IMG/VR virus record: IMGVR_UViG_3300048577_000442
Location: 1-34,075 of that record
DNA from: a virus
Lineage: Duplodnaviria; Caudoviricetes
Strand: one strand, 5' to 3'
Length of the DNA: 34,075 nucleotides
The notes beneath the pieces were generated by a model. The model saw only the letters and a list, made by a program, of their open reading frames with translations, did not search any database and was not told where the DNA came from. A program made the position numbers and the translations under genes. This document shows, in pieces, positions 3,447-33,754 of this stretch. The first letter of the stretch is position 1. Every line of letters begins with the position of its first letter.

Positions 3447-3452
3447 TATTTA
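3447..3452 (-). promoter_or_regulatory. TAAATA T4-late-like promoter motif
   Basis: Minus strand tTAAATAactgtATG, 5 nt before the start at 3441, no SD. Confidence 0.65.
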
Positions 3453-3659
3453 ATTCACGGACTCAGAGGCCTGACTCAGCATCAGATACGGCATCACATC
3501 AGCATCAGTCAGATACCCACGCAGATAATCCTTGATGATGCAGGCGACGGCAGCAGGGGTGAGGTTTCCACTGAGGCTTTGGTCTAGTTCCGCATCCGTC
3601 AACTCATTCTTCATATTCGCTAAGATCAATGCCTCTTCAATGTTGATTGTGATTGTCAT
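3450..3659 (-). CDS. Hypothetical protein
   Basis: 69-aa ORF co-oriented with the downstream genes. Confidence 0.5.
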   Translation of the reverse strand: MTITINIEEALILANMKNELTDAELDQSLSGNLTPAAVACIIKDYLRGYLTDADVMPYLMLSQASESVN

Positions 3660-3755
3660 TGCTCGATCAAATCACAGTTCAAACTACTTTGCATCTACTT
3701 TCTTTTCATGAGATGATAGATGGGTTGATAGAGATCAGGCTTAATACATAAACCA

Positions 3756-4652
3756 ATGGTCATTTATGGCGAGTCGTTACTAATGCTGCAAGGCATTGCA
3801 GATACGGAAGGAGAGACATTCGATGCTTGTGTGTGCGATCCTCCTTACGGATTGAGATTCATGAATGCGAAGTGGGATCATAATGTTCCATCCGTTGCAA
3901 TGTGGCAAGCCGTCATCGGCGTCCTCAAGCCCGGTGCTCATCTATTGGCTTTCGGCGGAACCAGGACTTACCACCGGATGGTTGTTAACATCGAGGACGC
4001 AGGGTTCGAGATCCGTGACCAGTTGGTTTGGCTGTATGGAAGCGGCCTCCCCAAGTCGAAAGACCTCAACGACGGTATGGGAACCGCTCTCAAACCTGCC
4101 ATGGAGCCAATCGTCTTGGCCCGGAAGCCTCTCTCAGAGCGGAATGTCACGGCGAACGTGAGGAAGCACGGTACAGGCGGGCTGAACATCGACGCCTGTC
4201 GCATAGGTACAGACCAAATCAGGACTTATCACAGTGCATTCCTCAAGTACAGCGGTCAAAATCGTCGCCCGTGGCACGACCGCCACGTCAACCACACGTC
4301 CAAGCACACAGGTCGCTTCCCGGCGAACGTCTTGATAGATGAAGAGACAACAACAGTTCTGGACAGCGAGCCACACCCCACCAAAGGGGGAGCATCACGG
4401 TTCTTCTACTGCGCCAAGGCTTCAAAGTCTGAAAAAGGTGATGCGAAACACCCAACAATAAAGCCGCTAGCGCTCATGCGCTATCTTTGCCGCCTCGTCA
4501 CGCCATCGCAGGGCCGAATCCTTGATCCGTTCGGTGGCACAGGAACCACCAAGGAAGCGGCTCATCTGGAAGGGTTCGATTGCACGGTAATCGAGCGAGA
4601 ACGGAAGCACATCGCAGACATCACAAAACGAATGAGAAAGCATGAGGTATGA
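3756..4652 (+). CDS. DNA methyltransferase, N6-adenine/N4-cytosine, beta class
   Basis: Catalytic DPPY near the N-terminus, HPTIKP and SAM-binding ILDPFGGTGTT near the C-terminus; no cognate endonuclease adjacent. Confidence 0.93.
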   Translation: MVIYGESLLMLQGIADTEGETFDACVCDPPYGLRFMNAKWDHNVPSVAMWQAVIGVLKPGAHLLAFGGTRTYHRMVVNIEDAGFEIRDQLVWLYGSGLPKSKDLNDGMGTALKPAMEPIVLARKPLSERNVTANVRKHGTGGLNIDACRIGTDQIRTYHSAFLKYSGQNRRPWHDRHVNHTSKHTGRFPANVLIDEETTTVLDSEPHPTKGGASRFFYCAKASKSEKGDAKHPTIKPLALMRYLCRLVTPSQGRILDPFGGTGTTKEAAHLEGFDCTVIERERKHIADITKRMRKHEV

Positions 4653-5064
4653 TGACGAAATGTCCGACATTTCGACTCTAATACGACAAATGGAGGAGAC
4701 CGCCAAGGAGGTCTCCGAACTGACCGCAAAGTTGGAGGCCACGAAGCTCAAGGGGCGGGAACTGGCGACCAGATATCAGGAGTATCACCTAGCCATCCTC
4801 AGGCAGTTCGACGTGGAGGAGGAACCAGCCTCGAAACCGACGAAGCCGAAAAGCGGACGACCGCCCAGGTCGCTGGTAGGGCGGGCGCAGTCGTCTGTGA
4901 CGAGGTTGCTGAACTCCATCGACACAAAGGCCACTGCCAAAGCGGCTGCGCTGAAGCAAGCGACGGAAACGGCTGAGCGAGTCTGCCGGAAGAACGGCTC
5001 ACTGCTCACAGACGAAGTGAAGGCAATGGTGGAAGCAAAGATCAGCGAGATGTACAAGAGATAG
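4642..5064 (+). CDS. Small basic coiled-coil protein (paralog of 5067..5435)
   Basis: N-terminal coiled coil, KPKSGRPPR linker, helical C-domain shared with the next gene. Confidence 0.65.
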   Translation: MRYDDEMSDISTLIRQMEETAKEVSELTAKLEATKLKGRELATRYQEYHLAILRQFDVEEEPASKPTKPKSGRPPRSLVGRAQSSVTRLLNSIDTKATAKAAALKQATETAERVCRKNGSLLTDEVKAMVEAKISEMYKR

Positions 5065-5066
5065 AT

Positions 5067-5435
5067 ATGCCATCCATACTTGATCAGATACGGGACCTCG
5101 AAACCAAGAAACAACAACTCCTCGACACGGCGATTGCCCAACTACAGGCAGAAGTCGATGCATTGAACGATCTGGGCTACTCATACGTCCTCGTTCGCAC
5201 CGTGGACTCACCAAGCCGCAGCAAACGGGCCAGGGCCACATCAACGGAGATCAGATGGAGCACGAGCATCACTCGGATCCTGAACTACGCTAAAGCGAAC
5301 AAGCTCACGAAGGCACAAGCTCTAGATGCGATCAGGCTCGCCTTGCAAAAGCTGGCGCACAAGAAGGGCACCACAGTACCAGCGGATGTGCTGCAACAGG
5401 CTGAGCAGCAGGTGGCCGAAGCATTGAAGAAATGA
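5067..5435 (+). CDS. Small basic coiled-coil protein, H-NS-like architecture (paralog of 4642..5064)
   Basis: Starts 2 nt after the previous stop; coiled coil ending LNDLGYSYVLV, basic linker, SITRILN..KAQAL..KKG domain. Confidence 0.65.
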   Translation: MPSILDQIRDLETKKQQLLDTAIAQLQAEVDALNDLGYSYVLVRTVDSPSRSKRARATSTEIRWSTSITRILNYAKANKLTKAQALDAIRLALQKLAHKKGTTVPADVLQQAEQQVAEALKK

Positions 5436-5529
5436 ACTGTAACGTCTTCTCTGCCACGCCAAGGCAGGTTGACAGCCCCACCTCCAGTCACCCGAGTAGC
5501 CTAGTACCGAACACAGAACGATACTCTCT

Positions 5530-6234
5530 ATGGCGATAGATGCAAGACTGATACGGAAAGAGGAACTTGCCCTCTGGGAGACAATCAAAGCAGCAGGATT
5601 CGATCCAGCAGATTTTGAACTCAAAGAGATTGTACGCACTGAAATAGATCCCTCTGGTGTACCTAACAGAAGGAGACATGAATACCGTGTTACATCTTGC
5701 GTCCACACATCAAGCGGCAGCTACTTCGTTGTAGGTGTATTCTGGCTTGTCTGGTCGCCAGACCCCGACCAAAGAACCAATCAAACAATAAAGGAGGTCG
5801 AGTGGTCGCTGAACCGCTTCGCTATCCAACGATGGCTTGCCGCCATCAAATTTGACCTAGACAATCCCAGCCCTTGGGAGTCATTACGCTCCAGCAAATC
5901 ACTCAATGAGTTCCTTGACACTCAGACAGACGACGGTCCATTCACGCCACACGAGCAACAGGTAATTGCAGAAGCCACCGATACCGCTAAGGAAACCGCT
6001 AGCGCAGTAAGTAATCTCCCTGCTGATCACCTTAAGCGCATTGCCGATTCTCTCGACACCCTGAAAGCCAGTTCAGCGAGTGTTACAAAGAAGCAATTCA
6101 TTACTCTAGCGCTGGGCGAAGCTGTGAAACTGATGATGCAAAAGATCAATCTAGATGTGATCCGATCCGTATGGGATACACTGTTGCACGGCATTGCAGC
6201 CATCTACGGGTACATTCGCTTATTGAGTAGCTAG
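5530..6234 (+). CDS. Hypothetical accessory protein
   Basis: 234-aa ORF, visibly more AT-rich than the core genes; helical hydrophobic C-terminus. Confidence 0.7.
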   Translation: MAIDARLIRKEELALWETIKAAGFDPADFELKEIVRTEIDPSGVPNRRRHEYRVTSCVHTSSGSYFVVGVFWLVWSPDPDQRTNQTIKEVEWSLNRFAIQRWLAAIKFDLDNPSPWESLRSSKSLNEFLDTQTDDGPFTPHEQQVIAEATDTAKETASAVSNLPADHLKRIADSLDTLKASSASVTKKQFITLALGEAVKLMMQKINLDVIRSVWDTLLHGIAAIYGYIRLLSS

Positions 6235-6386
6235 CTATGAGATTCGACTTGTATGCTAAGTAGCTTGACGCTATTGGAAGTTACTCCTAAGTTGTCATGA
6301 TTGACTACCCAGGACACGGACTGGTCGCATTACGTAAGGCACAGGCAACTTACTTTCGATTCAGAAGGAAACGAGGCGGGAAGATA

Positions 6387-6845
6387 ATGGCACGTCTTAT
6401 TGCAATTTGCGTTCTATATGGCGGATTGACTCTTCATGCGGGCGATCCCTACAATTATTCCAGGTGGTGGTCATCACTTACGCCACAGGCGCAACATACC
6501 TATATTGATGGTTACATGTTGGGTGTACAAAGCGCCTATAACACGCTACGCTTCTTGTGGATTCCAGACCCTGAGCGCTTTCACGCACCGCCAAGTAAGC
6601 GAATTGCTGATGCCGATGAGCGCCTATTCCCAAAGACAATTGACTCTGATGTTCTTGTGCCGATCATTTCAGACCTATACAAAGACCCCTCTAATCTTTA
6701 CGTTGCACCACATCGCCTGCTTTACATTGCCAGCAGTAAGATAAACGGCCAGAGAATTGATGATGATCTTGTCTTTGAACGGCGCAGAGCGATTGAACTC
6801 CACGAGGCCAGTGAAAAACTCCAAAAAGCGATGGAGAAGAAATAG
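6387..6845 (+). CDS. Putative exported protein
   Basis: ATG at 6387 after GAGGCGGGAAG gives MARLIAICVLYGGLTLHA, which is signal-peptide-like. ORF track start is 6297. Confidence 0.65.
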   Translation: MARLIAICVLYGGLTLHAGDPYNYSRWWSSLTPQAQHTYIDGYMLGVQSAYNTLRFLWIPDPERFHAPPSKRIADADERLFPKTIDSDVLVPIISDLYKDPSNLYVAPHRLLYIASSKINGQRIDDDLVFERRRAIELHEASEKLQKAMEKK

Positions 6846-6971
6846 GAGGACCTTCCTATGGCAGGCCACTTCGTCAGCGATGGTGCGGTCACGCCTCTAC
6901 GCCCTGCGGCAAGTCCGAATGATTGATGCGGCTGGAACAGACAGCCCAACCGCAGACGACCCTAATCCACC

Positions 6972-7595
6972 TTAAGCTCTCACTATGCGGTGGGCGCTCC
7001 CAGCAAGCACGTGAACCTCGATCCTAACACCAATGATGAGTGGGGCTTCGAGACTGTAAGTGTTAAAGTTGGGCTTGATCGCCAATACGACATTATTGCC
7101 TTCTTTGATATGGCATCCCGGCAATGTTCCGTAATTGCCATAAGCCACGACAATACCCTCAAGATCATACACGTGGCCAATTAAATCTCCAGTTGCGGCA
7201 TTAACCACCTTCTGCCCGATTAGACGCTTCAGGATGTCAGCATTACTGGTTTGCCAATTTGGAGGAAGTGCCATTTCTCCTTCTGGTGTGACAAATATCG
7301 ATCTTCGTCCGGTCTTCCAGGTCTCAACAAGCAAATCTTCTCCATTGCCAACGGGCAACTGAAGTCCTTCTACTTTGGATCCCACTGTTTTCATGACTGA
7401 AGTAACGCATTCCTTCCCCAGCCTAACACCAGCAGGCTGCGCCATGCAGTCGTGGTTCGGCAAGGAACCTTGAGTAGTAATTGCGTCTAGCTGGCGATCA
7501 CTCTGCTCCGCTCGCACATTAGCGAACGGCATTAATTCATTGATTACTTGGATCGCCGCATCTGTTACTGCGTCGAGGCGTTCTAGATCTGTCAC
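6972..7595 (-). CDS. Hypothetical accessory protein
   Basis: 207-aa ORF, no motif recognised. Confidence 0.6.
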   Translation of the reverse strand: MTDLERLDAVTDAAIQVINELMPFANVRAEQSDRQLDAITTQGSLPNHDCMAQPAGVRLGKECVTSVMKTVGSKVEGLQLPVGNGEDLLVETWKTGRRSIFVTPEGEMALPPNWQTSNADILKRLIGQKVVNAATGDLIGHVYDLEGIVVAYGNYGTLPGCHIKEGNNVVLAIKPNFNTYSLEAPLIIGVRIEVHVLAGSAHRIVRA

Positions 7596-7736
7596 TTAGT
7601 ATTCATCCCTTCTGAATAAATCCCCCGATGACCGTTCGGAGGCCCGCTCATCATACCATTCCGTGAACTCTCCTGAGAGTGATTGAACGTAACGTAAGCA
7701 ACATTACACAGCGATCAACTATATCTGTCATATTGA

Positions 7737-7886
7737 CTACACTGCCTTCAGCTTCCAGCCTCTCCTCGTCTTCACCATCCGCACATCCCCTGATCGCTCC
7801 CTATCTTGCTTACGATCCTTGCCTTGTTCTGCGATCAACGCCGCAAGTTGATCTGACGCCCGTCGCTCTTTCTTCCTCTTTTTCAT
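7737..7886 (-). CDS. Small basic hypothetical protein
   Basis: ATG at 7886 with GGGAGA upstream, just after the stop of the rep-like gene; 49 aa, K/R-rich. Confidence 0.4.
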   Translation of the reverse strand: MKKRKKERRASDQLAALIAEQGKDRKQDRERSGDVRMVKTRRGWKLKAV

Positions 7887-7891
7887 TCGTT

Positions 7892-8896
7892 TCAATTCTC
7901 CCAGGTCGGCAGAGCCGTCATCATGTCGGGCTCTTCGATCCATTCCACGTTGGCAGCGTCGCTCTCAAACCCGACTGAGAAGTGATCCATGACAGGCGGA
8001 GCCTTGTAATCTGCAATTCCATCTGTGATGCCCATCTGCGCCAGTGCTCTGCATGCTCGGTCGGACAGTTCTTCTGTCGGCGGCAATGCTGGTGATCTTG
8101 TGATGACTGGCGCTGCCTGTGTGACTGGAGACGCTGAAAGACAAGTGATGACCTGATCACGTCGAGGCATCACTTGTCTGAATACAGGCATGTTGACATG
8201 CGGCTCTGCGATCTCATACAGCCCCCAGCATCCATCAGGCTTCACAACCTCACCTGCTGCGAGCAGCCGCCGCAACTGGGCACTGACAGTCGAGACGTTC
8301 GCTTCCAGGTCCGTGGCAAGCTTCCTGGGTGTGGATCTGCCCTGGCGAAGCTGATCCAGGATGCGGTCGTGCAATGTGTCAGGCCCAGTTTGCTTGGGTC
8401 TTCCCCTCTTGGTGTTTGTTTTCATAGTGTTATATCTCTCCCTCCTCTTCTCGTTCCGTTTGTTCTTCACTTTGTGAAGTTCAGGCTGGACTGCCTTTTC
8501 TACCTTTCGCAACAGCGCCGTCAGATGTGTCCGCAGTTGATCGGCGGTTGGATACCTGCCGTGATGGTGCATCCACGCCAGCACGACCCATCCCGTCTCG
8601 ACGAATGTCAGCCGATGCATGAAGCACACCCACGCCATGTGCTTTGCTGTGTCGGCAGTTGCCGCCTGCCAGTGCTGCTGGAATGTTCTCGTCGTGAACC
8701 AGAGGCCGAACAGCTTGTGATCGGCGGGCGGCTGGCTGTCGAACGATGAGGCTGTTTCATTCACTTTGTGAACGAACCAGACGAACCTTGGATCATCCTG
8801 ACGGCGGATGGAGAACTCAGGAACGTGTGACTTTGATGTCTCGGTTACGTGCTTGACGAGATCAGTGTTGATGGTACGATAAATAGTAGTAGTCAT
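7892..8896 (-). CDS. Putative replication initiator / origin-binding protein with winged HTH
   Basis: wHTH (RILDQLRQGRSTPRKLATDLEANVSTVSAQLRRLLAAGEVVK..GLY), AT-hook-like KRGRPK, adjacent to the iteron-like array. ATG at 8896 preferred over the track GTG at 8989. Function inferred from context. Confidence 0.55.
   Translation of the reverse strand: MTTTIYRTINTDLVKHVTETSKSHVPEFSIRRQDDPRFVWFVHKVNETASSFDSQPPADHKLFGLWFTTRTFQQHWQAATADTAKHMAWVCFMHRLTFVETGWVVLAWMHHHGRYPTADQLRTHLTALLRKVEKAVQPELHKVKNKRNEKRRERYNTMKTNTKRGRPKQTGPDTLHDRILDQLRQGRSTPRKLATDLEANVSTVSAQLRRLLAAGEVVKPDGCWGLYEIAEPHVNMPVFRQVMPRRDQVITCLSASPVTQAAPVITRSPALPPTEELSDRACRALAQMGITDGIADYKAPPVMDHFSVGFESDAANVEWIEEPDMMTALPTWEN
8853..8880 (+). 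promoter_or_regulatory. Sigma70-like promoter antisense to the rep-like gene
   Basis: TTGACG (8853-8858), 16 nt, TACGAT (8875-8880) with TGn extension; TAAATA overlaps at 8880-8885. Confidence 0.5.
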
Positions 8897-8943
8897 TTCA
8901 ATATCATGGCGCTTCTGGGTTCCACCCCCAGAAGCGCTTTTTT
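8887..8943 (+). ncRNA. Putative counter-transcribed antisense RNA (~55 nt) over the rep start codon
   Basis: Bounded by the predicted promoter and a plus-strand intrinsic terminator, complementary to the ATG at 8896 and its leader. The 5' end is approximate. Confidence 0.45.
8909..8943 (+). terminator. Intrinsic terminator
   Basis: Perfect 11-bp stem GCGCTTCTGGG / CCCAGAAGCGC, 7-nt loop, followed by T6. Confidence 0.75.
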
Positions 8944-8954
8944 GTGTCTGCTCG

Positions 8955-8962
8955 TATTTATA
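8955..8962 (-). promoter_or_regulatory. TATAAATA, exact T4 late promoter consensus, upstream of the rep-like gene
   Basis: Plus strand TATTTATA, flanked by the inverted repeat CTCGT...ACGAG (8951-8968). Confidence 0.65.
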
Positions 8963-8993
8963 CACGAGGCTCGTTTCAAACTCCCGCACTCAA

Positions 8994-9312
8994 CTCATGC
9001 GTAATCTTCGTACACGTAGGCGGGGGCAAGCCACTACCAAACGTCGTACACGTGATGCATCTCATGCATAATCTTCGTACACGTGCCGGCACCTAATTCG
9101 TGCAAAATCATCGTACACGTGCGGAAACTCGTGTCTAATCTTCATACACGTGGAAGAGACGGGTTTCGTGCGTTATCTTCGTACACGTCCTGAATCTCGT
9201 GCGTAATCTTCGTACACGTACGGAGACTCGTGCATAATTTTCGTCGCACTATGTACTCTATAGTAATAATAAAAAATATTCTAGAATGGTGCGACGAAGA
9301 TTTTGCACGAGT
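8994..9312. repeat. Iteron-like array with AT-rich core: putative replication origin
   Basis: 24-bp unit CTCGTGCRTAATCTTCGTACACGT starting at 8994, 9030 (degenerate), 9061, 9097, 9128, 9165, 9196 and 9227; AT-rich tract 9250-9288; inverted copy 9289-9312. Confidence 0.88.
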
Positions 9313-9892: not shown

Positions 9893-9921
9893 GTTGACAA
9901 GGTTCGTCTTCGACCAACTCA

Positions 9922-9927
9922 TAAATA
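9922..9927 (+). promoter_or_regulatory. TAAATA T4-late-like promoter motif
   Basis: aTAAATAa, 18 nt before ATG 9946. Confidence 0.65.
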
Positions 9928-9945
9928 ACTCATAGGCATCACTCT

Positions 9946-13515: not shown

Positions 13516-13773
13516 ATGTTCATCGGCAACCACGATTCACTCATTGATCACCTATTCGCCTCATTCAAGGACGAGCAACCCGTCTACTACGATGTGTTGC
13601 TCATCATCCTGAGGCGACGTGGCATGACGCAGCGTCTCTTTCGAGAGAAGTACGGCATCAAAACGGCAAAGGCGTATTGCATAATCCGAAGTGAAGCGTT
13701 AACCGCATTCAGATCACATCTTCATAGAGCATGGCGTGTCAAGCATCGTAGACATATCTACATGAAACACTAG
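13516..13773 (+). CDS. Small basic protein, possible HTH (sigma region-4/late activator-like)
   Basis: RGMTQRLFREKYGIKTAKAYCIIRSEALTAFR resembles a terminal HTH; weak. Confidence 0.4.
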   Translation: MFIGNHDSLIDHLFASFKDEQPVYYDVLLIILRRRGMTQRLFREKYGIKTAKAYCIIRSEALTAFRSHLHRAWRVKHRRHIYMKH

Positions 13774-13780: not shown

Positions 13781-13815
13781 TAAATACTGTTGTGCTTTGG
13801 AGAGCACGACGGTAT
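13781..13815 (+). promoter_or_regulatory. TAAATA motif plus RBS/start-masking hairpin
   Basis: TAAATA 13781-13786; 14-bp stem ATACTGTTGTGCTT / GAGCACGACGGTAT with G-U pairs, spanning GGAG and the AT of ATG 13814. Confidence 0.7.
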
Positions 13816-14408: not shown

Positions 14409-14774
14409 ATGCCCTCCAAGCTCCCAACACGTTGCCGCAACCACCACAAGGGCTGTCCCGCTCTCACGACAAATAAGAACGGCTGGTGCGACGAGCATCA
14501 GCCAATCGCATTCAGTCTCTTCGGCGAACGCAAGAAGACGGAACATCGTAGACTCTACAACACACCCGCATGGCGCAAGCTCAGATTGGCCGTGTTGGCA
14601 GAGGATCCCCTTTGTGCGGAGTGCCTGAAGGGAGGCTTGACTGTCGGCGCTACGGACGTGGATCACATCATCGACCTGGCTAACGCACCGGAACTTGCCC
14701 TGGTGCGAGCCAACCTTCAGTCGCTCTGCCATCCATGCCATTCGAAGAAGACGATTTCCAAGATGGCTCTCTAG
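14409..14774 (+). CDS. Terminase-associated HNH endonuclease (HK97 gp74-like)
   Basis: YNTPAWRKLR..L..DPLCAEC..ATDVDHI..NLQSLCHPCHSKKT. Confidence 0.9.
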   Translation: MPSKLPTRCRNHHKGCPALTTNKNGWCDEHQPIAFSLFGERKKTEHRRLYNTPAWRKLRLAVLAEDPLCAECLKGGLTVGATDVDHIIDLANAPELALVRANLQSLCHPCHSKKTISKMAL

Positions 14775-15072
14775 TTGGAACCATTCTACACAGGACTTCC
14801 AAGGTTGCCGAAATGTCAATACAACAAAGCGTCAAAGTGTCAAAACGGTAAAGGATCAAACATCAAATCGTAAAAACGTCAAAACCGTAATTCGTCATGT
14901 CAAATCCGCTCTCAAGCAGTATCAGTGAATGAGCTTGGAACGTCTTGAAAGAAGGCGCTTGACTTTTATCATTCAATTGATGATAGTTGCTATTAAGACC
15001 GAATCGCTAGAAAGAGGAATCTCCGGTCAAGTAGCCGGGCCTGTCCTCTCCACTAGCAGAAAGGAGAATCCT

Positions 15073-15210
15073 ATGGCAGCCAAGCAAGGTGGCAACAGCG
15101 GCGGAGGCAAATCTCGCAGCGCAAAGACTGGCGAGTATGTCAAACCCGAGTACGCCAAGAAGCACCCCGCCACTACGGTAGTCGAAAAAGACCAGCCAAA
15201 GAAGAAGTAG
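15073..15210 (+). CDS. Small basic protein (RSAKTGEYV..YAKKHPATTVVE type)
   Basis: Strong SD AAGGAGA at 15061; 45 aa. Confidence 0.7.
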   Translation: MAAKQGGNSGGGKSRSAKTGEYVKPEYAKKHPATTVVEKDQPKKK

Positions 15211-15310
15211 CTAGTGCCTGCGCATAGCGGCCTGAAGTAACCGGGCCGCAGCATCTATGATGTTCGGTGAGGTAGATTAACGTGATAGTACTGCAAGAAA
15301 GTCAGGCGAC

Positions 15311-16114
15311 GTGAACCAGCCGATCTCTTACTGCGTTCTCTGCCAGCAAGAGCGTCAGTTGCAGAGGAGCCATCTGCTGCCCGCAGCTCTTTATCGGTTG
15401 ATGACATTTCGAAACAATGGCAAGACGCTTGATCCGGTTACCATAACAGGCTCGGCTGTCTGGACCACATCTCAGCAACTCCGTACTCCTCTGTGTTGCT
15501 CTGAATGCGAACAGCGCTTCCACGCTGGTGGAGAGAACTATACGATGAAGCAGTTGTATCGGGGGCCTACTACATTTAGGCTTCGCAAGCGATTGCTAGA
15601 GAGTCCGGCTATCCATGAAGATGACAACCTTCGCATCTACCGAGTAGCCGACCTTCCCGATGTCAATATTGCGGCACTTCTTTATTTCGCCGTTAGTGTA
15701 TTCTTCAAAGCCTCTGTCTATCGCTGGAGTCGTTTTCACCACTGTGACGACATTGACCTCGGGGAATATTACAATGAGCGGTTGCGGCACTATCTTCTTG
15801 GAAATGGCACACTAGATTACTCAATTGCAATTGTCATTGACGTGTGCGGCATTGATTCTCCATATCTCCACAGTGTTTTCTACCCTGCTGGTGGCCGACA
15901 GGAGGGGCATCACGCCTACCAATTCACTGTCAACGGCATCACATTCGTGTTGTTTCTAGGGAAGAGGCTTCCCTCTTACATTACACAATATTGTACAAGC
16001 TCTGCGCAGAATCCGGTATTGTACTCAACCAAGTCTGACAGAGACATTGTGAATTCCTTTCTTCACCTGATGAAAACGGCTAGGGTTGCGACATCACTAA
16101 AGCGTGGCCAATAG
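15311..16114 (+). CDS. HNH-like zinc-binding nuclease-domain protein (moron)
   Basis: CVLC..LQRSHLLP...LCCSECEQRF..GE.Y; AT-richer than the flanking genes. Confidence 0.65.
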   Translation: MNQPISYCVLCQQERQLQRSHLLPAALYRLMTFRNNGKTLDPVTITGSAVWTTSQQLRTPLCCSECEQRFHAGGENYTMKQLYRGPTTFRLRKRLLESPAIHEDDNLRIYRVADLPDVNIAALLYFAVSVFFKASVYRWSRFHHCDDIDLGEYYNERLRHYLLGNGTLDYSIAIVIDVCGIDSPYLHSVFYPAGGRQEGHHAYQFTVNGITFVLFLGKRLPSYITQYCTSSAQNPVLYSTKSDRDIVNSFLHLMKTARVATSLKRGQ

Positions 16115-16174
16115 TTCCGGACTTCCAGCTAGATCGTTGCAATAACTGGCCTGCTGATTGCGACAGCGTCGACA

Positions 16175-16250
16175 CCCCTCCCCTCGACTCTCTGGCTGCG
16201 TGCCACTGAGACCGCACTCCGTCCTCTCGTACGTGTAGTTCCTCAATTGG
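16175..16250 (+). other. Candidate cos packaging site
   Basis: Non-coding gap just upstream of terS; C-run followed by GAC-CGCACTCC-GTC (16210-16223). This is the expected position in HK97-like cos phages. Confidence 0.4.
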
Positions 16251-16251
16251 C

Positions 16252-16257
16252 TAAATA
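16252..16257 (+). promoter_or_regulatory. TAAATA T4-late-like promoter motif
   Basis: cTAAATAg, 29 nt before the terS ATG. Confidence 0.6.
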
Positions 16258-16286
16258 GTTCCGGCCACAAGAGCCAAAAACTACAT

Positions 16287-16769
16287 ATGAAGAGAAGCGG
16301 AAACCCACGAGGGCGGCGTCACGCCATCACACAGGTTGACAACCCGGCAGATCCGGCCAAGCTGCGCTGTCCGGAATGGGTTCCATCTGATGGTGCGGCG
16401 CTGTTCCGGAAACTGAAGGCTGCGGTTGCACCCATCATGGCAGACAACGACATCACAAGCCTTCTGGCGATGTGCGCTGCCTACGGCTACGCAGTGAAGG
16501 CGGCGAAAGAACTCAACGAGAAGGGGATCACGATAATGGACGAGCGCAAGATTCCACGCAAGAACCCCGCTGTCCAGGTGTGGAGGGATCAAATCGCCCT
16601 CTTCAACGCATTGGCGACAAACTTCGGCCTGACTCCCGCAGCACGAGCGAAGCTCAACAGCCTTACGCCACAGGCCAGCCAAACCCTTGACGAACTACTA
16701 GACGAGGCCGATTCGAACACGGCCAGAGAGGAGCAGTGTATTCCGACCGACACGCCAACAGAGTCCTAG
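16287..16769 (+). CDS. terS: Terminase small subunit (P27 family)
   Basis: GNP.GRR, P.W, L..YC-like MCAAY, KNPA, FGLTPAARAKL. Confidence 0.92.
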   Translation: MKRSGNPRGRRHAITQVDNPADPAKLRCPEWVPSDGAALFRKLKAAVAPIMADNDITSLLAMCAAYGYAVKAAKELNEKGITIMDERKIPRKNPAVQVWRDQIALFNALATNFGLTPAARAKLNSLTPQASQTLDELLDEADSNTAREEQCIPTDTPTES

Positions 16770-18304
16770 CCTTCATCGAGCGTGCCTGTGTCATTCCATC
16801 CGGCAAGGGTGCTGGCGGATCCTTCAAGCTGCGTGGCTGGCAGAGAGACCTGATTTGCCCGCTTTACGGGACGTTGAACGAGGACGGCACCAGACAGTAC
16901 CGCACCGCTTACATTTCGATGGCCCGCAAAAACGGCAAGTCTACTCTACTGGCTTGCCTTGCCCTCTATCATTGCTTCGCTGACGGCGAGCAGATGGGCC
17001 AAGTCATCCTGGCTGCAAACGACAGGGCGCAAGCCTCTATTGTCTTCGATGCGGCGGCACAGATTGTACGGAACAGCCCGATCCTGAACCAACGATCCAC
17101 GATCATCCCATCTCAGAAACGGATCATCGACAAGATTTCGGGCTCAATCATTCAGGCCGTCTCCAGCGACGTGCCAACCAAGCTCGGTCTGAACGTGTCG
17201 GCGCTGATCTACGACGAGCTTGCCTTTGCGCCGAACCGGGAACTGTGGGATGTCTTGACGACTGCCGTGGGCGCTAGAACACAGCCGATGGTGATGACCA
17301 TCACCACGGCAAGCTGGAACTCATCACCTGGGGACATCGGCTACGAACTCTACACCTACGCCCATGACCTCGCCAAGGGACTGAAGCAAGACAGCACATT
17401 TTACAGCTTCATTCGAGAAGTTCCACAAGAGGCTGACTGGACATTGGAGGCGAACTGGAAGCGGGCAAACCCTGCCATGGGTGACTTCCGCTCGCTTGAG
17501 GAAATGCGGACCAGTTTCAACCGTGCCGTGAACATCCCGGCTGCGCAGAACACCTTCAAGATGCTTTATCTGAACCAATGGGTGAAGCAGGAGAGCCGCT
17601 GGATTGACTTGGTAGTGTGGGACGAGTCGGCAGGCATTGTTGACGCCGCAGAACTCGAAGGTCAGCCTTGCTATGCAGGGCTGGATCTCTCCTCTACAAC
17701 AGACCTGTCAGCCTTGGTGCTTGTGTTCCCGCAGCCAGAGGGTGCATTCATGGTCCTGCCGTTCTTCTTCCTGCCATCGGACGGCCTCCGTGAACGATGT
17801 CTGAAGGATCACGTGCCGTACGACGTGTGGTCGGCAGACGAATCGACAGGGCTCACGCTCACACCGGGCAACGTGATCGACTACGACTACATCACGGAGA
17901 AGCTGCGGGAACTCGGCACACGTTATGACATCCGTGAGGTTGCCTTTGATCGTTGGGGAATGGCGAAAATCAGCCAAGACCTGACAGCCGTTGGCTTCAC
18001 AATGGTGCCCTTCGGACAGGGATTCCAGTCTATGAGTCAGCCGACAAAAGAACTTCAGAAGCTCGTGCTGTCAGGCAAGCTTCACCACGGCGGCAATTCC
18101 ATCCTGAGATGGATGTTGGACTGCGCATCGGTGGAGCAGAAGCCGGGTGATCTTATCAAACTGGTCAAGCCAGACCGCTACAAATCGTCTAAACGTATTG
18201 ACGGTCTTATTGCGACCGTCATGGGCCTTTCAAGAGCCCTAGTACACAATCCAGAGCCAGATGACTTCGTCATTGCGCTTGGCGGATGGTCAACTACTCA
18301 ATAA
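16736..18304 (+). CDS. terL: Terminase large subunit
   Basis: WQ adenine motif, Walker A ARKNGKS, Walker B IYDE, ITTA, nuclease GLDLSSTTDL, KRIDG. Confidence 0.97.
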   Translation: MYSDRHANRVLAFIERACVIPSGKGAGGSFKLRGWQRDLICPLYGTLNEDGTRQYRTAYISMARKNGKSTLLACLALYHCFADGEQMGQVILAANDRAQASIVFDAAAQIVRNSPILNQRSTIIPSQKRIIDKISGSIIQAVSSDVPTKLGLNVSALIYDELAFAPNRELWDVLTTAVGARTQPMVMTITTASWNSSPGDIGYELYTYAHDLAKGLKQDSTFYSFIREVPQEADWTLEANWKRANPAMGDFRSLEEMRTSFNRAVNIPAAQNTFKMLYLNQWVKQESRWIDLVVWDESAGIVDAAELEGQPCYAGLDLSSTTDLSALVLVFPQPEGAFMVLPFFFLPSDGLRERCLKDHVPYDVWSADESTGLTLTPGNVIDYDYITEKLRELGTRYDIREVAFDRWGMAKISQDLTAVGFTMVPFGQGFQSMSQPTKELQKLVLSGKLHHGGNSILRWMLDCASVEQKPGDLIKLVKPDRYKSSKRIDGLIATVMGLSRALVHNPEPDDFVIALGGWSTTQ

Positions 18305-18325
18305 GGCACAAACAGACGCCAACTC

Positions 18326-18331
18326 TAAATA
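18326..18331 (+). promoter_or_regulatory. TAAATA T4-late-like promoter motif
   Basis: cTAAATActgtctATG, 6 nt before the portal start, no SD. Confidence 0.7.
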
Positions 18332-18337
18332 CTGTCT

Positions 18338-19540
18338 ATGACAATCGTGGACAGAATTGCAGGCTTCTTCGGCGCCCGCAGACAGGTTGACCTCCCTCAG
18401 GACCTAATGGCCCTTTATGGTAGAAATGCTTTTGCAGGGGAAGTCGTTACCAAAGAGACCGCACTCGCAGCAAGTGCGGTCTACGCATGTACTCGCATTT
18501 TGGCGAACACATTCGCATCGCTTCCAATTCATACCTTCAGACGACTGGGTGATGCGAAAGAGAGAGTGTCTGACCATTACCTCTCCGATCTTTTGAAATA
18601 TAAGGTTAACCCGTACACGACAACGTTCTTGTGGAAACAGCACATGATGACGAGTCTCTGCCTCACGGGGAATGCCTACTCGCAGATCATTTTCAATGGG
18701 CGAATGCAGGTGCTGGGGCTGTATCCGCTCAACGCCTCACGCATGAAGGTGTCGCTCTCCAACGGCGTCCTGACCTACGAGTACAGAACTGAAAGCGGAA
18801 CTGTCACCATTCCAGCCGATGAGATCCTACACATTCGCTCACTGACTATTGACGGTTTCACTGGCCTGTCTCCATTGGATGCGGCTAGAGAGTCGGTCGG
18901 GATCTCCCTCAGCACTCAACGCCACACCGCCCAGTACTTCGCCAATGGAGCCACGCTCGGAACCGTCATAAAAGTCCCTCTCGCCAAACCCGATGCAGCC
19001 CAAGCCAAAGCCTATCAGGACGCCTTTACAAAGGCGCACGCCGGAAGCCGAAATGCAGGCGAGCCACTGTTTCTGTTCGGTGGCGCAGAGCTACAGCAGC
19101 CGACTCTCAACTACCAGCAACTCCAGTTTCTTGAATTGCGAAAGTTTACCGTCGCTGAGATCGCACGCATCTTCGGAGTCCCACTCCACATGCTGAACGA
19201 ACTAGACAGGGCCACATTCAGCAATATTGAACAGCAGTCAATGGAATTCCTTCGGGACACGCTGCGACCAATCGTCTCGAACGTGGAAGCCGAACTGAAC
19301 ACAACTCTACTGTCCAACCGTGAACGGCAAAGCGTCTTCGTCGAGTTCCTACTGGACGATTTCGTTCGAGCGGACCTGAAGTCCCGTTACGACGCCTACG
19401 GAGTAGCCTTAGGCACAGGGATTCCATTCCTGACACCGAACGAAGTGCGTGCCATCGAGAACCGCCCACCTGTCACTGGTGGAGACCAACTCTACATCCC
19501 ACGACAGAACACTCCGGATCCGACCGTACCGAATCTCTAA
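18338..19540 (+). CDS. Portal protein, HK97 family
   Basis: SAVYAC..ILA..ASLP, GNAY, EILHIR, GLSP, EIARIFGVP, SNIEQQ, TPNEVR. Confidence 0.97.
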   Translation: MTIVDRIAGFFGARRQVDLPQDLMALYGRNAFAGEVVTKETALAASAVYACTRILANTFASLPIHTFRRLGDAKERVSDHYLSDLLKYKVNPYTTTFLWKQHMMTSLCLTGNAYSQIIFNGRMQVLGLYPLNASRMKVSLSNGVLTYEYRTESGTVTIPADEILHIRSLTIDGFTGLSPLDAARESVGISLSTQRHTAQYFANGATLGTVIKVPLAKPDAAQAKAYQDAFTKAHAGSRNAGEPLFLFGGAELQQPTLNYQQLQFLELRKFTVAEIARIFGVPLHMLNELDRATFSNIEQQSMEFLRDTLRPIVSNVEAELNTTLLSNRERQSVFVEFLLDDFVRADLKSRYDAYGVALGTGIPFLTPNEVRAIENRPPVTGGDQLYIPRQNTPDPTVPNL

Positions 19541-19543
19541 ATA
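19538..19543 (+). promoter_or_regulatory. TAAATA T4-late-like promoter motif
   Basis: cTAAATAatctccATG, 6 nt before the protease start; overlaps the portal stop. Confidence 0.68.
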
Positions 19544-19549
19544 ATCTCC

Positions 19550-20134
19550 ATGATTCGGAGATCGTTTTCATTTGATGTTCGGGCCGAAGACTCACAAAGT
19601 GATGTCATCCAGGGCTACGCTGCTGTGTTTGACAAGCCCTCACTCGACCTTGGCGGCTTCACTGAGCGCATCGCACAGGGTGCCTTCACAAACACGTTAG
19701 CGGACAGCACCAATGATGTGCTGGCACTGTGGGCGCACGACTGGTCCATGCCTCTTGGTAGGCGCTCGGCGGGTACCCTGAAGCTCATCCAGGACGAAGT
19801 TGGCCTGTCCGTAGAGATCACCCCAAACGACACGACCTGGAGTCGAGATGCGGTTGCGAGCCTGAAGGCGGGCAACGTCAGGGGCATGTCATTTGGGTTC
19901 GTCGTCGATGCTGAATCTTGGGATTACGAAACCAAGACAAGAACCATAGATGCCATCACTCTGTATGAAGTCTCCTTAGTTGCCAATCCTGCATATCCGG
20001 ACACAGCAGTGTCTGTTCGCTCATTGATTGATGAATTGGATGCAAGCTTCCACACCAATCGCCCCTCCGAGTCCTTTCTAAATGTCACGAGTCGCCAGCT
20101 TCACATTCTGAAGTTGAAACATAAAGCGCTCTAA
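19550..20134 (+). CDS. Prohead maturation protease, HK97 family
   Basis: GYAAVF, FTERI..GAF, catalytic H (WAHD), GMSFGF, LYEVSLV..PAY. Confidence 0.96.
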   Translation: MIRRSFSFDVRAEDSQSDVIQGYAAVFDKPSLDLGGFTERIAQGAFTNTLADSTNDVLALWAHDWSMPLGRRSAGTLKLIQDEVGLSVEITPNDTTWSRDAVASLKAGNVRGMSFGFVVDAESWDYETKTRTIDAITLYEVSLVANPAYPDTAVSVRSLIDELDASFHTNRPSESFLNVTSRQLHILKLKHKAL

Positions 20135-20137
20135 ATA
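20132..20137 (+). promoter_or_regulatory. TAAATA T4-late-like promoter motif
   Basis: cTAAATAa upstream of the capsid SD GGAGG (20156). Confidence 0.65.
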
Positions 20138-20170
20138 ACATTGAATGACAATTTCGGAGGATTCTTCTCT

Positions 20171-21358
20171 GTGAAGCATCTATTTGAACAAAGAAATAAG
20201 CTGATGTCTGATCTCCAGGCTATCATCACTTCCTGCAATACGGAAAAACGTGACATGACGACTGAAGAAAAGGCCAGCTTTGACACGATGACGTCCGATG
20301 TGGATGCCATCGACGAGCAAGTCGAACGACAGAAGAAGGTCGCAAACCTCAATGAGCGTGCTTCGCTGCCCGTAAACAATCCTGTCCTGGAGACATCCAA
20401 GGGCAACACCAACTTGGATGAGCACGGCAGTTTCCGCCACTACCTAAGCACTGGCGAGACTCGTGCCGCATTCCTGAGCGTCGGGACGAACGCCGATGGC
20501 GGTTTCACTGCTCCAGTGGACTTCGCCAAGGAACTTGTCAAGATCATCATCGAGAAGTCACCCATCCGCCAGCTAGCTACCGTCGTCGAGACGTCTCTGA
20601 AGGCAGTTCCCTTTCCCCGCAAGAGCGCTGGTCCCACCGCAGCATGGACAGGTGAACATGCAGCGTCCGGGCAGACTCAGAGCACCTACGGGAACGTCAA
20701 TGTGTCGGTGGCATCCGCACGTTGCTATACGGACATCACCACCGAACTTTTGCAGGACTCCACTTTCAACCTGGAGCAGTTGGTTCTATCGGATCTAGCT
20801 GAGGAGTTTGCTCGGCTCGAAGGACAAGGTTTCATCACTGGAGATGGGTCGAACAAGCCTTCCGGTATTTTGGATGTCACTAACAACGGCATCACACCAG
20901 TCCTCACCGCCGCTGTCGCCACATTGACAGCAGACGACATGATCGGCGCCTTGTACGGCCTGAAGATGGACTACATTGCGAATGCAACGTGGGTGTTCAA
21001 TCGGGCGACGATGGCCAAGGTTCGGCAACTGAAACTCAACTCGCAGTACATCTGGAACCCCTTCGTAGGTGGACAACCGAACAACATCGTTGGCGGATTG
21101 CCGGGAACCATTCTGGATCGCCCATACGTGATCGCACCGGACATGCCGAATCAGGGGACCACAGGGAATCTATTCATGGCCGTAGGCGATTTCCGCAATG
21201 GCTACCGGGTTGTGGTCAAGCCAGCCGCTCAGTCGGTAAGCGTCCTCAGAGACGACTTCACGCAAGCCGTCAATGGAAGCGTACGCTTCCATGGCTACTA
21301 CCGTGTAGGTGGCGCAGTTGTGAACCCCGAAGCAATCGTGATCCTCAAGGACAAGTAA
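20171..21358 (+). CDS. Major capsid protein, HK97 fold with delta domain
   Basis: Coiled-coil N-terminus, DGGFTAP, ELLQDS, F..GDG..KP.G, GDF..GY, RVGG.V..PEA. GTG at 20171 follows GGAGG; track start is 20141. Confidence 0.97.
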   Translation: MKHLFEQRNKLMSDLQAIITSCNTEKRDMTTEEKASFDTMTSDVDAIDEQVERQKKVANLNERASLPVNNPVLETSKGNTNLDEHGSFRHYLSTGETRAAFLSVGTNADGGFTAPVDFAKELVKIIIEKSPIRQLATVVETSLKAVPFPRKSAGPTAAWTGEHAASGQTQSTYGNVNVSVASARCYTDITTELLQDSTFNLEQLVLSDLAEEFARLEGQGFITGDGSNKPSGILDVTNNGITPVLTAAVATLTADDMIGALYGLKMDYIANATWVFNRATMAKVRQLKLNSQYIWNPFVGGQPNNIVGGLPGTILDRPYVIAPDMPNQGTTGNLFMAVGDFRNGYRVVVKPAAQSVSVLRDDFTQAVNGSVRFHGYYRVGGAVVNPEAIVILKDK

Positions 21359-21376
21359 ACAATCACACGCAACACG

Positions 21377-21410
21377 AAAGGCTGGTCTTCGGATCAGCCT
21401 TTTCTTATTT
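21377..21410 (+). terminator. Intrinsic terminator after the capsid gene
   Basis: AAAGGCTGGTC-TTCG-GATCAGCCTTT with cUUCGg loop and T-rich tail. Confidence 0.8.
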
Positions 21411-21413
21411 CCA

Positions 21414-21590
21414 ATGACAATCCAATTCACACAGGCATTTCTTGGTCAGTCCGTAGGAGACGTGATCGACCAACCGCAAACCATTGCAATGGCGCTGATC
21501 CACCTCAAAGTGGCGGAAGAGATCGAACCCAAGCCCGTTCAGGAAACGGCAACCATCAAACGGCCACGCCGTACAGCAATCACTAAATAA
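21414..21590 (+). CDS. Small capsid-adjacent hypothetical protein (58 aa, not in the ORF track)
   Basis: MTIQFTQAFLGQSVGDVID...AMALIHLKVAEEI...KRPRR; typical position between capsid and adaptor. Confidence 0.65.
   Translation: MTIQFTQAFLGQSVGDVIDQPQTIAMALIHLKVAEEIEPKPVQETATIKRPRRTAITK
21584..21589 (+). promoter_or_regulatory. TAAATA T4-late-like promoter motif
   Basis: cTAAATAactttgcATG, 7 nt before the start, no SD. Confidence 0.68.
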
Positions 21591-21596
21591 CTTTGC

Positions 21597-22157
21597 ATGT
21601 TCGAACTCGTCAGCAGTCCTGCCACAGAACCGATCACACTCGATGATGCCCGCACGCATCTGAACCTCACGACGGGCGACTTCGATGGCTTTCTGGCGGG
21701 ACTGGTGACGGCGGCAAGAGAGTTGGTCGAGAAGGAGATCAATGGATCAGTCATCACGACAGGCTTCAACTACTATCCTGATTGCTTCGGCTTCCCTGTC
21801 GCCATCTCAAAAGGCAATATCCTAGCGGTCTCTGCCGTGTCCTATCGCACGCAGGACGGCCAATGGCATGACCTAGACAATACGCTGTGGGATTTCACAA
21901 GCTACAGCCGGGAAGTCTTCCTGAAGCCGAACGCCACCTATACGACGGGAAGTCTGTATCCACGGCACCCGATGCGAATCAGCTTCACGGCGGGATTCGG
22001 AGCTACACGTCAACAGGTCCCAGCAGCGATCAAGCATGCTGTCAAGATCATCCTGTCTCATCTTTTCGAGCACCGTGAGGACGGGATGTCTGAGATGCCA
22101 TTCCCTGCTCGCATGATCCTCTCTCACTACCAGACTGTGACACCGGAGATGTTCTAG
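21597..22157 (+). CDS. Head-tail connector (HK97 gp6-like adaptor)
   Basis: P..EPITL..AR.HL, AARE.VE, FTAGFG..VPAAIKHA...HLFEHRE. Confidence 0.92.
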   Translation: MFELVSSPATEPITLDDARTHLNLTTGDFDGFLAGLVTAARELVEKEINGSVITTGFNYYPDCFGFPVAISKGNILAVSAVSYRTQDGQWHDLDNTLWDFTSYSREVFLKPNATYTTGSLYPRHPMRISFTAGFGATRQQVPAAIKHAVKIILSHLFEHREDGMSEMPFPARMILSHYQTVTPEMF

Positions 22158-22474
22158 TGACTGCCGCAACGCTCGACACCCTCATAACGATCCAGTCACG
22201 CACCGTCGCTCAGAACACAGTCGGTGAAGCCGTCGAGACCTGGAATGATCTGGCCTCAACCTACGCCCACAAGTCATCACGTTCCGGCAGGGAGTTCTAT
22301 TCCGCCTCTCGTACCGTGGCAGAGGATGCCGTGTTCTTCCTCATCCGGCACATGGACGGGCTCGACAGCACAATGCGTGTCATTCATGGAGCGGACACCT
22401 ACGACATCACGGCAATCCGGTATTCCGAGAAGCGCCGTGAATCCATAGAGTTGCAATGCAGGCTCGTCCGCTAG
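22157..22474 (+). CDS. Head closure protein (SPP1 gp16-like)
   Basis: L...ITIQ..GE..ETW..SGREF..F.IR..MRV..YDI. Confidence 0.9.
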   Translation: MTAATLDTLITIQSRTVAQNTVGEAVETWNDLASTYAHKSSRSGREFYSASRTVAEDAVFFLIRHMDGLDSTMRVIHGADTYDITAIRYSEKRRESIELQCRLVR

Positions 22475-23115
22475 TCTCAGCAGTCTGTCCGACCAGGACA
22501 AGCCGAATTGACTACCTGCCCACCGCCATTCGTTGCTTTCAAAACCAGACATATCCGCATCTAGAGCTAGTCATAGTCACTGAGGACGACGTATCAGCCG
22601 TCATCCCCACAGATCCACGTATCCGGCTCGTCAGGTGCCCTCCAGGGCTCTCACTGGGCCTGAAACGGACCATAGGCGCTGAAGCCGCATCCGGCGATGT
22701 CGTGGCGCACTGGGACGATGATGATCTGTATCATCCATCTCGGCTCAGTGAACAGCAAGCCATCCTTACGCCTGACAAGCCGATCACTGGCTATCGGTCC
22801 ATTCGCTTCTACAACGTCATTGACAATCACGCCAGAGCCTACCGCTATCACGATGACGCTCTCGTGCTCGGCACCAGCATCACCTATCACCGTTCCGTTC
22901 TGACCGATCATCCATACCCTGATCTGACCCACGGTGACGAGTGCATCTGGCTCGCTGGTCTCGGGTCTCTCTTGACACCTACAGACGGCCTTGACCGCTG
23001 CATTGCTCTCGACCACCACGGCAACACATGCCCACGGATCTACACGAGCAGCTACAGCGACATCGACACGGCGGAGACACTGAGTCTCATGCAAAGCTGG
23101 CAAACCCATAAATAA
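22456..23115 (+). CDS. Glycosyltransferase family 2 (GT-A fold)
   Basis: PLVSAVCPT, QTYP.LELVIV, LG.KR..G...A.GD.VAHWDDDD.YHP.RL. Confidence 0.9.
   Translation: MQARPLVSAVCPTRTSRIDYLPTAIRCFQNQTYPHLELVIVTEDDVSAVIPTDPRIRLVRCPPGLSLGLKRTIGAEAASGDVVAHWDDDDLYHPSRLSEQQAILTPDKPITGYRSIRFYNVIDNHARAYRYHDDALVLGTSITYHRSVLTDHPYPDLTHGDECIWLAGLGSLLTPTDGLDRCIALDHHGNTCPRIYTSSYSDIDTAETLSLMQSWQTHK
23109..23114 (+). promoter_or_regulatory. TAAATA T4-late-like promoter motif
   Basis: aTAAATAactgcATG, 5 nt before the start, no SD. Confidence 0.68.
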
Positions 23116-23998: not shown

Positions 23999-24035
23999 TA
24001 AATAACTTCTGAGAATTCTCATCTCGGAGGTTATT
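23999..24035 (+). promoter_or_regulatory. TAAATA motif plus SD-masking hairpin
   Basis: TAAATA 23999-24004; 14-bp stem AATAACTTCTGAGA / TCTCGGAGGTTATT pairs the GGAGG SD. Confidence 0.75.
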
Positions 24036-24805: not shown

Positions 24806-25128
24806 ACTGGCTCGCCCTCTGGGCTGATGCCCGGATGCAACTGAGACTTACGGAAGATGAATTGTGGGAACTGACATTCATTGAATTGGATGCGCTGTTT
24901 GCATCACATCGAAAACAAGAAGCGTATCAGGATTATCGCTTCGGCAAAGTATGTGAAATTATCGCACTGAGTCAAGGTGTAAAAACAAACAACGGAGCTA
25001 AGATCAGTCCTGAGCTGTTTTTCCCATCTGTCAAGAATCTAACAAAAGAAACAGCAGAGCAAACACCAGACCAGATGCTGGCCTGGGCTGAAATGTTCGC
25101 CGCCTTAAACAAGACCCCCGATAAATAA
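24769..25128 (+). CDS. Tail assembly chaperone frameshift extension (gpGT-like)
   Basis: The -1 frame reads ...IDWLALWADARMQLRLTEDELWELTFIEL..., continuous with track ORF 24835..25128. Confidence 0.78.
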   Translation, partial: PKRTEGRDSKAIDWLALWADARMQLRLTEDELWELTFIELDALFASHRKQEAYQDYRFGKVCEIIALSQGVKTNNGAKISPELFFPSVKNLTKETAEQTPDQMLAWAEMFAALNKTPDK

Positions 25129-25142
25129 CATATCGGGGGTTT
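25112..25142 (+). promoter_or_regulatory. TAAATA motif inside a hairpin masking the TMP SD (possibly also a terminator)
   Basis: AGACCCCCGATA-AATAACA-TATCGGGGGTTT; TAAATA at 25122-25127. Confidence 0.7.
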
Positions 25143-27690: not shown

Positions 27691-27721
27691 CTGTCTACAT
27701 ATTATTAGTTCATACCCATTG

Positions 27722-27762
27722 GGCGTCGGCATCTCCTATCACATTCTGCCGACGCCTTTTTT
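27722..27762 (+). terminator. Intrinsic terminator after TMP
   Basis: GGCGTCGGCA / TGCCGACGCC 10-bp stem, 15-nt loop, T6. Confidence 0.7.
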
Positions 27763-27771
27763 CATTCCCGA

Positions 27772-27777
27772 TAAATA
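27772..27777 (+). promoter_or_regulatory. TAAATA T4-late-like promoter motif
   Basis: aTAAATAttgacATG, 5 nt before the start, just after a terminator, no SD. Confidence 0.72.
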
Positions 27778-27782
27778 TTGAC

Positions 27783-33524: not shown

Positions 33525-33525
33525 C

Positions 33526-33741
33526 ATGATTCCACTAACTGATGAACAAATCGCCATCATCGAAAAACTAAAAGCCGATGCAGAGGCAGCCTACGAGAAA
33601 GACCGTGCGGCCTTGCAAGCTCAACACACTCAGACTCTAATGAATCAGGTGTATGGCGTGCTTGTAACATTGAGAACAATTCATGGAGTCGATGATAAGT
33701 ATAAGTTTTCGGAGGACTTCCGATCACTCATCGAAGTATAG
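33526..33741 (+). CDS. Hypothetical protein (possible fibre chaperone)
   Basis: ATG 1 nt after the tail gene stop; 71 aa. Confidence 0.6.
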   Translation: MIPLTDEQIAIIEKLKADAEAAYEKDRAALQAQHTQTLMNQVYGVLVTLRTIHGVDDKYKFSEDFRSLIEV

Positions 33742-33748
33742 GGATCAA

Positions 33749-33754
33749 TAAATA
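33749..33754 (+). promoter_or_regulatory. TAAATA T4-late-like promoter motif
   Basis: aTAAATAa followed by SD GAGGA and ATG 33770. Confidence 0.65.

Follow-up and report, generated by a model that had tools for sequence, protein, structure and literature searches.

TAAATA boxes resembling T4 late promoters precede sub-operons of an integrated HK97-type phage and may be read by a sigma factor supplied in trans

The stretch of DNA that we analyzed (the window; 34,075 nucleotides) is an HK97-type provirus. It was assigned to the provirus class by IMG/VR (CheckV 44%, the right boundary not being seen), and its proteins are carried on a contig of 367,199 bp. Judging from sequence, the host is most likely a Bryobacteraceae acidobacterium, because the integrase is 92% identical to that of Paludibaculum fermentans T20B24. 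According to the annotation of the window, it encodes a fibre module, two HNH genes, HK97-type packaging and head genes, a siphovirus tail and an XhlA-like gene. The virion set is complete by gene content (head, connector, tube, tape measure protein, tip and fibre), with none of the borrowing of virion parts by which satellites are recognized. A family 2 glycosyltransferase gene (22456-23115) sits among the head-tail connector genes and is 87-89% conserved in the relatives described below; its product may modify virion proteins. Features other than the TAAATA sites are as follows.

1-1245, plus strand: tyrosine integrase, 92% identical to the integrase of a P. fermentans prophage inserted at a tmRNA 3' end
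1283-1621, minus strand: excisionase-like HTH protein (weak match; 86% identical in a relative)
3756-5435, plus strand: DNA methyltransferase and two small coiled-coil genes, without a TAAATA box
7892-8896, minus strand: Rep-like protein, 334 aa, winged HTH, putative initiator
8983-9312, no strand assigned: candidate iteron-type origin with an AT-rich patch, at least six direct repeats spaced 31-67 nt apart and a copy in inverted orientation
13516-13773, plus strand: conserved ORF of 85 aa directly ahead of the HNH gene, candidate cis regulator (its sigma-4-like HTH signal is weak)
21376-21403, plus strand: terminator-like hairpin 3' of the capsid gene

The Rep-like protein is a putative initiator because iterons adjoin its gene and it has a winged HTH. 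Its leader contains a strong hairpin followed by a four-codon uORF (8893-8907, minus strand) whose stop overlaps the rep ATG, and translational coupling is possible there. No repressor, Q/RinA, endolysin or sigma factor was called with Pfam, PHROG and NCBIfam among the ORFs called within the window, several of them unannotated. There was no gp55, gp45, gp44 or gp62 in the window by tblastn and profile searches and no gp33 by PHROG scans, and no clamp loader or T4 replisome genes were found.

There are 15 exact copies of TAAATA in the window, 13 on the plus strand and two on the minus strand, referred to here as boxes.

3447-3452, minus strand: 5 nt before the ATG of ORF 3103-3441; overlaps the stop of ORF 3450-3659
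8880-8885, plus strand: antisense to the rep-like gene and barely within its 5' end (gene start 8896, minus strand); faces the iterons; sole exception to the placement before genes
8955-8962, minus strand: full TATAAATA, 58 nt upstream of rep
9922-9927, plus strand: 18 nt before the gp80-like gene, first of the fibre module; kept in both relatives
13781-13786, plus strand: 27 nt before the HNH gene ATG at 13814
16252-16257, plus strand: 29 nt before terS
18326-18331, plus strand: 6 nt before the portal ATG
19538-19543, plus strand: 6 nt before the protease ATG; overlaps the portal stop
20132-20137, plus strand: before the major capsid gene; overlaps the protease stop
21584-21589, plus strand: 7 nt before the gp6-like adaptor gene
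23109-23114, plus strand: 5 nt before the gp10-like gene; kept in both relatives
23999-24004, plus strand: 35 nt before the tail tube gene; in the 5' arm of a predicted GGAGG-hiding hairpin
25122-25127, plus strand: 22 nt before the tape measure gene; within a terminator-like hairpin (25112-25142)
27772-27777, plus strand: 5 nt before the tail-tip gene (1913 aa)
33749-33754, plus strand: 15 nt before the XhlA/holin-like gene; also in both relatives

An exact scan reproduced the coordinates and strands of all 15 sites given in the first-pass annotation. The mean number in shuffled sequences was 3.26, none of 100 shuffles reached 15, and TAAATA was the most over-represented hexamer of the window under a Markov model. 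One-mismatch variants occurred 0-10 times per strand and did not have the same placement. For 13 of the 15 sites, a gene on the same strand starts no more than 40 nt after the end of the box, a zone that makes up 2.5% of positions (binomial p 1e-19; 41 curated gene starts). At up to 60 nt the number is 14, which confirms the earlier observation that 14 of the sites lie upstream of a gene on the coding strand and adds a significant enrichment against starts. TAAATA ranked first among 3687 hexamers in a start-placement test made with a start set in which some starts were a few bases off. Six of the 15 sites overlap an upstream TAA stop. Sites had been reported by eye to be missing deep inside the long ORFs; this absence is real (no sense sites within ORFs) but is not significant alone (2.0 expected, p 0.11). 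Sigma-70-like promoter sites were not in excess in the window (12 vs 12.5).

There is one box per sub-operon, not one per late gene. The proposal that each late gene has its own promoter was overstated, because a box is present at only 14 of the 41 genes; terL, fibre, HNH2, head closure, GT2, gp17, TAC and T have none. The capsid gene probably starts at GTG 20171, a choice made because of a GGAGG. The gene described as holin-like did match XhlA, with a score below the curated cut-off. ORF 3103-3441 (minus strand) is a box-bearing gene that is neither structural nor rep; the label "Panacea-like", given to it by eye, found no support in Pfam, NCBIfam, PADLOC or PDB.

Spacers between box and start are 5, 5, 5, 6, 6 and 7 nt or fall between 15 and 58 nt, with none of 8-14 nt when the presumed capsid start is used. 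The sequence [A/C]TAAATA is present at 35 of 36 sites in the family, the base before the box being A in 67% and C in 31%. T4-type late promoters have a -10 box and no conserved -35 region; in this family, six orthologous sites are 58% identical over the 20 nt upstream of the box, and the family profile spans 6 nt upstream. Late promoters of T4-like phages are TATAAATA in T4 and NATAAATA in S-PM2 (PMC2988020 and PMC2984593). In T4 the bases at -13/-12 are TA, whereas Aeh1 has C at -12 (PMC2988020), and adenines occupy -12, -9 and -8 (PMC7892883). With this numbering, +1 falls on the ATG wherever the spacer is 5 nt, and the A or C in front of the box agrees with position -12; as far as can be read from the DNA the position and spacing of the boxes fit T4 late promoters. 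In 80 viral contigs that carry gp55, a start followed within 44 nt for 154 of 705 boxes, the spacing being 5-7 nt in 26 cases and 8-14 nt in 10; the background in these contigs is high because they are AT-rich.

Ribosome sites in T4 are hidden in hairpins that are opened by late starts (PMC3014915). In the window, predicted stems cross the presumed +1 at the HNH (11 pairs), tube (15 pairs) and tape measure (10 pairs) sites, and at the HNH site a predicted 14-bp hairpin hides the Shine-Dalgarno sequence in read-through RNA. Start regions were less accessible in read-through RNA than controls (0.35 vs 0.54, p 3e-4, from control values that are not independent), and a late start did not raise accessibility significantly more than in controls (p 0.07). 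Four of the eight long leaders have their own Shine-Dalgarno sequence.

The cultured host P. fermentans T20B24 carries a member of the box-bearing prophage family. It is 29 kb long, lies between copies of a 22-bp repeat at the 3' end of the tmRNA and has all 11 of its boxes on the coding strand. All 11 boxes of a second relative (G802) are also on the coding strand, and its excess in counts is weak (6 vs 3.7, reached in 12 of 100 shuffles, and 4 vs 1.3, in 4 of 100). The tail and fibre proteins of both relatives are 63-92% identical to those of the window; terL, portal and protease are only 28-38% identical. The packaging and head module (14409-22157 of the window) was swapped wholesale in comparison with the relative loci L084 and L138, with the fibre and tail modules shared, and boxes in the relatives precede terS, portal and protease of the swapped head module, in unrelated flanks. 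Both relatives have a box before the second HNH gene, which the window does not, and both are without an exact box before the capsid gene. They have neither rep nor the iteron array, and no recognizable replication gene.

Host DNA and other prophages of the order had no excess of the box. In two host genomes there was no enrichment of TAAATA followed by ATG relative to a reversed control (71 vs 62 and 44 vs 44), host DNA flanking the prophages had 1 TAAATA vs 1.1 expected and 2 vs 3.9, and 20 other Bryobacterales prophage stretches used as controls had 27 vs 27.5 expected. Searches with portal, TerL and capsid gave distant relatives at best: 80 portal loci were at most 40% identical and none had a TAAATA excess, the capsid scan was empty, and eight loci with capsid relatives of 44-47% identity, about 4 kb each, had no boxes. 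Scans with gp80 gave one family member in 80 viral loci and nothing above 63% identity among the matches listed (at least 79 metagenome loci).

We searched for gp55 with T4 gp55, the G262 gp55 described below, a 9-sequence profile that recovered T4 gp55, and phrog_234. It was absent from the window, the relatives and the P. fermentans assembly. Matches to phrog_234 were found in one of 401 order-level genomes and in none of 401 phylum-level genomes. No T4-like phage was linked to an acidobacterial host in this analysis, and HNH homologs gave no pointer to a T4-like helper.

The gp55 homolog lies on contig C1 of an assembled bin, G262 (G262:C1:102604-103152; L227:2604-3152, minus strand; phrog_234, E 9e-44). 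It is part of a lambda-type prophage that comes from the same host order but is unrelated to the window; host genes flank this prophage, and a 53-bp repeat in a tRNA-Leu bounds it. The prophage has an integrase, gp55, head and tail genes and a methyltransferase, and a scan of 48 of its ORFs called neither a repressor or lysin nor gp33 or gp45. All 13 of its boxes lie on the coding strand (6.6 expected; 2 of 100 shuffles reached this number). A methyltransferase gene followed by two small basic coiled-coil genes is an order common to the window (3756-5435) and the G262 prophage (L225:4567-6254); the set is possibly a silencer-like or protective cassette. The G262 gp55 keeps four of seven residues of the T4 promoter pocket, with two conservative changes: T4 N13, L54, F86 and Y97 are retained, R57K and T99S are altered, and H95F is as in three other aligned homologs. 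It departs from T4 at E77 and R114, and the C-terminal clamp-binding segment of T4 gp55 has no counterpart in it. Basal transcription can still be started by a truncated T4 gp55. On supercoiled DNA gp55 is weakly active by itself at this basal level; adding gp45 and gp33 increases its transcription about 300-fold, on DNA that must be loaded with the clamp. The sequence CTAAATG, 5 nt before the gp55 ATG, is a near-match to the box and suggests self-amplification of the G262 gp55. The closest cultured relative of this gp55 is that of DLP6, tied with cyanophages, and the portion of the DLP6 paper that was available (PMC5349666) gives no link to box-bearing elements.

The same bin contains two sister modules (C11 and C49, the arms of record G800) with nine and eight coding-strand boxes; co-binned modules do not necessarily come from one cell. 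Neither module has a gp55, nor does G802. In G800 (1-60500; L423-L426) the two related lambda-type virion modules are back to back and divergent, and a single integrase is found, on the left. Since no protein detectably common to these modules and the window was found, the box has spread over virion modules that are not related to one another. The box-bearing elements as a group have no window protein in common, an argument that the box is read in trans.

Boxes also accompany small Rep islands. The Rep-like family has 47 matches including the window copy and is present in six of 381 genomes, in four of which there is no box near the homolog. One homolog (G265, L438:1-14200) is 27% identical, has different iterons, and has TATAAATA upstream with a convergent antisense box at its start; the convergent pair is 84 nt apart there vs 80 nt in the window. 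This 14-kb stretch has seven boxes vs 1.7 expected and carries an integrase, HNH and structural-like genes with no capsid gene, and is cut by the contig end. An integrase-primase island in G051 (L439:11600-20000) has three boxes, and its serine integrase and primase adjoin a type I restriction-like locus. A single-sequence structure model of the Rep-like protein had a pLDDT of 40; an Atlas search gave no match and a viral scan no locus.

Spacing, strand, hairpins, conservation across a swapped module and the presence of gp55 in another prophage with these boxes favor reading the boxes as T4-like late promoters, as first proposed, apart from the idea of one promoter per late gene. With a probability of about 0.75, judged from sequence comparisons, the boxes are gp55-type late promoters read in trans and the window is a helper-gated element. 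The gp55-type sigma would be supplied from elsewhere because no gp55, gp33 or gp45 was found in the element, and we infer helper dependence because the sigma and a lysin are missing from the window. The larger share of this probability goes to a T4-like lytic phage infection as the source of gp55, and the smaller to a co-resident or superinfecting temperate phage that carries gp55. Of the two sources, a lytic T4-like phage would drive the boxes more strongly, because gp55 alone is weak and gp45 and gp33 add about 300-fold. Host sigma-70 would read the box poorly, leaving the prophage silent by default and a repressor unneeded. With RNA starting some 6 nt downstream of the box, transcripts from the six sites with 5-7 nt spacers would be leaderless, and at several boxes with longer leaders a late start may open hairpin-blocked ribosome sites. 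The box before rep and the box facing the iterons would couple replication to the same trigger. The element would then assemble its own head and tail and exit through the helper's lysis.

Some observations would suit a self-sufficient lineage in decay, for which an own gp55 was normal and the boxes are now relics, the window copy being lost or beyond the trimmed edge. The G262 C1 prophage proves that a temperate element can carry gp55, the right att of the window is not seen, and rep is missing from both relatives. We consider this unlikely: the att-to-att P. fermentans relative has just 1.3 kb past the holin-like gene and no gp55, its genome included, the G802 element and both G800 modules are likewise without it, and neither the genes nor the boxes show the decay expected of relics, the proteins being 63-92% identical. 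There is a similarly small chance that the box is read by a factor of the element or the host, for example ORF 13516-13773 as an activator like RinA or Q, or an alternative sigma of the host. Three elements have this ORF in conserved form; its resemblance to sigma-4 HTH clusters (scores 0.89-0.91) is a lead only, and fold searches with it gave no clear match. However, it is itself downstream of a box and was not found in the box-bearing G262, G800, G265 and G051 elements, and neither the host genomes (TAAATA before ATG) nor the 20 control prophage stretches (27 vs 27.5) have an excess.

A translation signal (stop-restart or a non-Shine-Dalgarno enhancer) instead of a promoter would account for the TAA stop overlap at six of 15 sites and for the six sites 5-7 nt from an ATG. 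We regard it as very improbable, given spacers of 5 to 58 nt, nine sites with no stop overlap, four of eight long leaders that have their own Shine-Dalgarno sequence, one conserved site that is antisense, and the presence of both a gp55 gene and the box in G262. Sequence between genes is richer in A and T, and stop codons provide TAA, but the chance that the boxes are no more than AT-rich intergenic words is close to nil: this is contradicted by the shuffle counts, the control prophage stretches and the placement at starts, as well as by one-mismatch variants that lack this placement, the strand purity and the recurrence in unrelated elements.

If the boxes are gp55-type promoters read in trans, a prophage could be induced by another phage's sigma factor instead of by losing repression; one phage would thus parasitize another, and defence may also be involved. 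We propose more tentatively, at somewhat less than even odds, a cross-phylum class of T4-gated, repressor-less integrated parasites, from small Rep islands to full virion-coding prophages, that are induced by the late sigma of a T4-like lytic phage infecting the cell. Such elements would replicate and package in a doomed cell and be released by its lysis. In one branch, gp55 may have been acquired as an amplifier, expressed from a near-match to the promoter that it reads. The class, if real, predicts T4-like phages of Acidobacteriota. The G262 gp55, without a clamp-binding segment, makes clamp-free late transcription amenable to direct test. The promoter type is known. We found no report of its use by integrated non-T4 elements, or of T4 late promoters in temperate phages or satellites, in the literature searched, mostly main texts from outside subscription journals. 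New here are a temperate gp55 carrier with such boxes, co-binned sisters without gp55, and a box-flanked Rep-origin module.

The gene order and virion module of the window are those of lambdoid phages controlled by Q or RinA, and the element differs from them in having 14 boxes and internal terminators where they have a single late operon with one promoter, and no Q, RinA or CI was called in it. In P4 and P2, late promoters are read via a factor supplied by the helper, and a homolog of this factor is found on some elements, just as G262 carries gp55. Ogr and Delta are activators that act with sigma-70 at few promoters, and P4 is without virion genes; the window, in contrast, has many boxes and full virion genes. 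PLE of Vibrio cholerae, which is triggered by ICP1, uses ICP1 virion parts, whereas the window element encodes a full head and tail and its trigger would be a predicted sigma factor. PLE is an integrated element with its own Rep, origin and HNH genes (PMC7145576, PMC8096241), to which the integrase, Rep-like gene, candidate origin and HNH genes of the window correspond, and the window element, like PLE, would be woken by infection with another phage. In its promoters the element resembles T4-like phages. Their late promoters have the same TAAATA core after A or C and many boxes through the late genes, the same distance of about one turn to the presumed start, and hairpins that hide ribosome sites (PMC2988020, PMC2984593, PMC3014915). 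One review treats the gp55 late system as a feature of the T4-related family; the window is instead a 34-kb integrated HK97-type siphovirus in which no T4 late-sigma or replisome genes were found. Capsid-forming PICIs, which are helper-dependent, resemble it in having HK97-type head and packaging genes (10.1101/2022.09.08.507074). They steal tails, whereas the window element has a full tail module.
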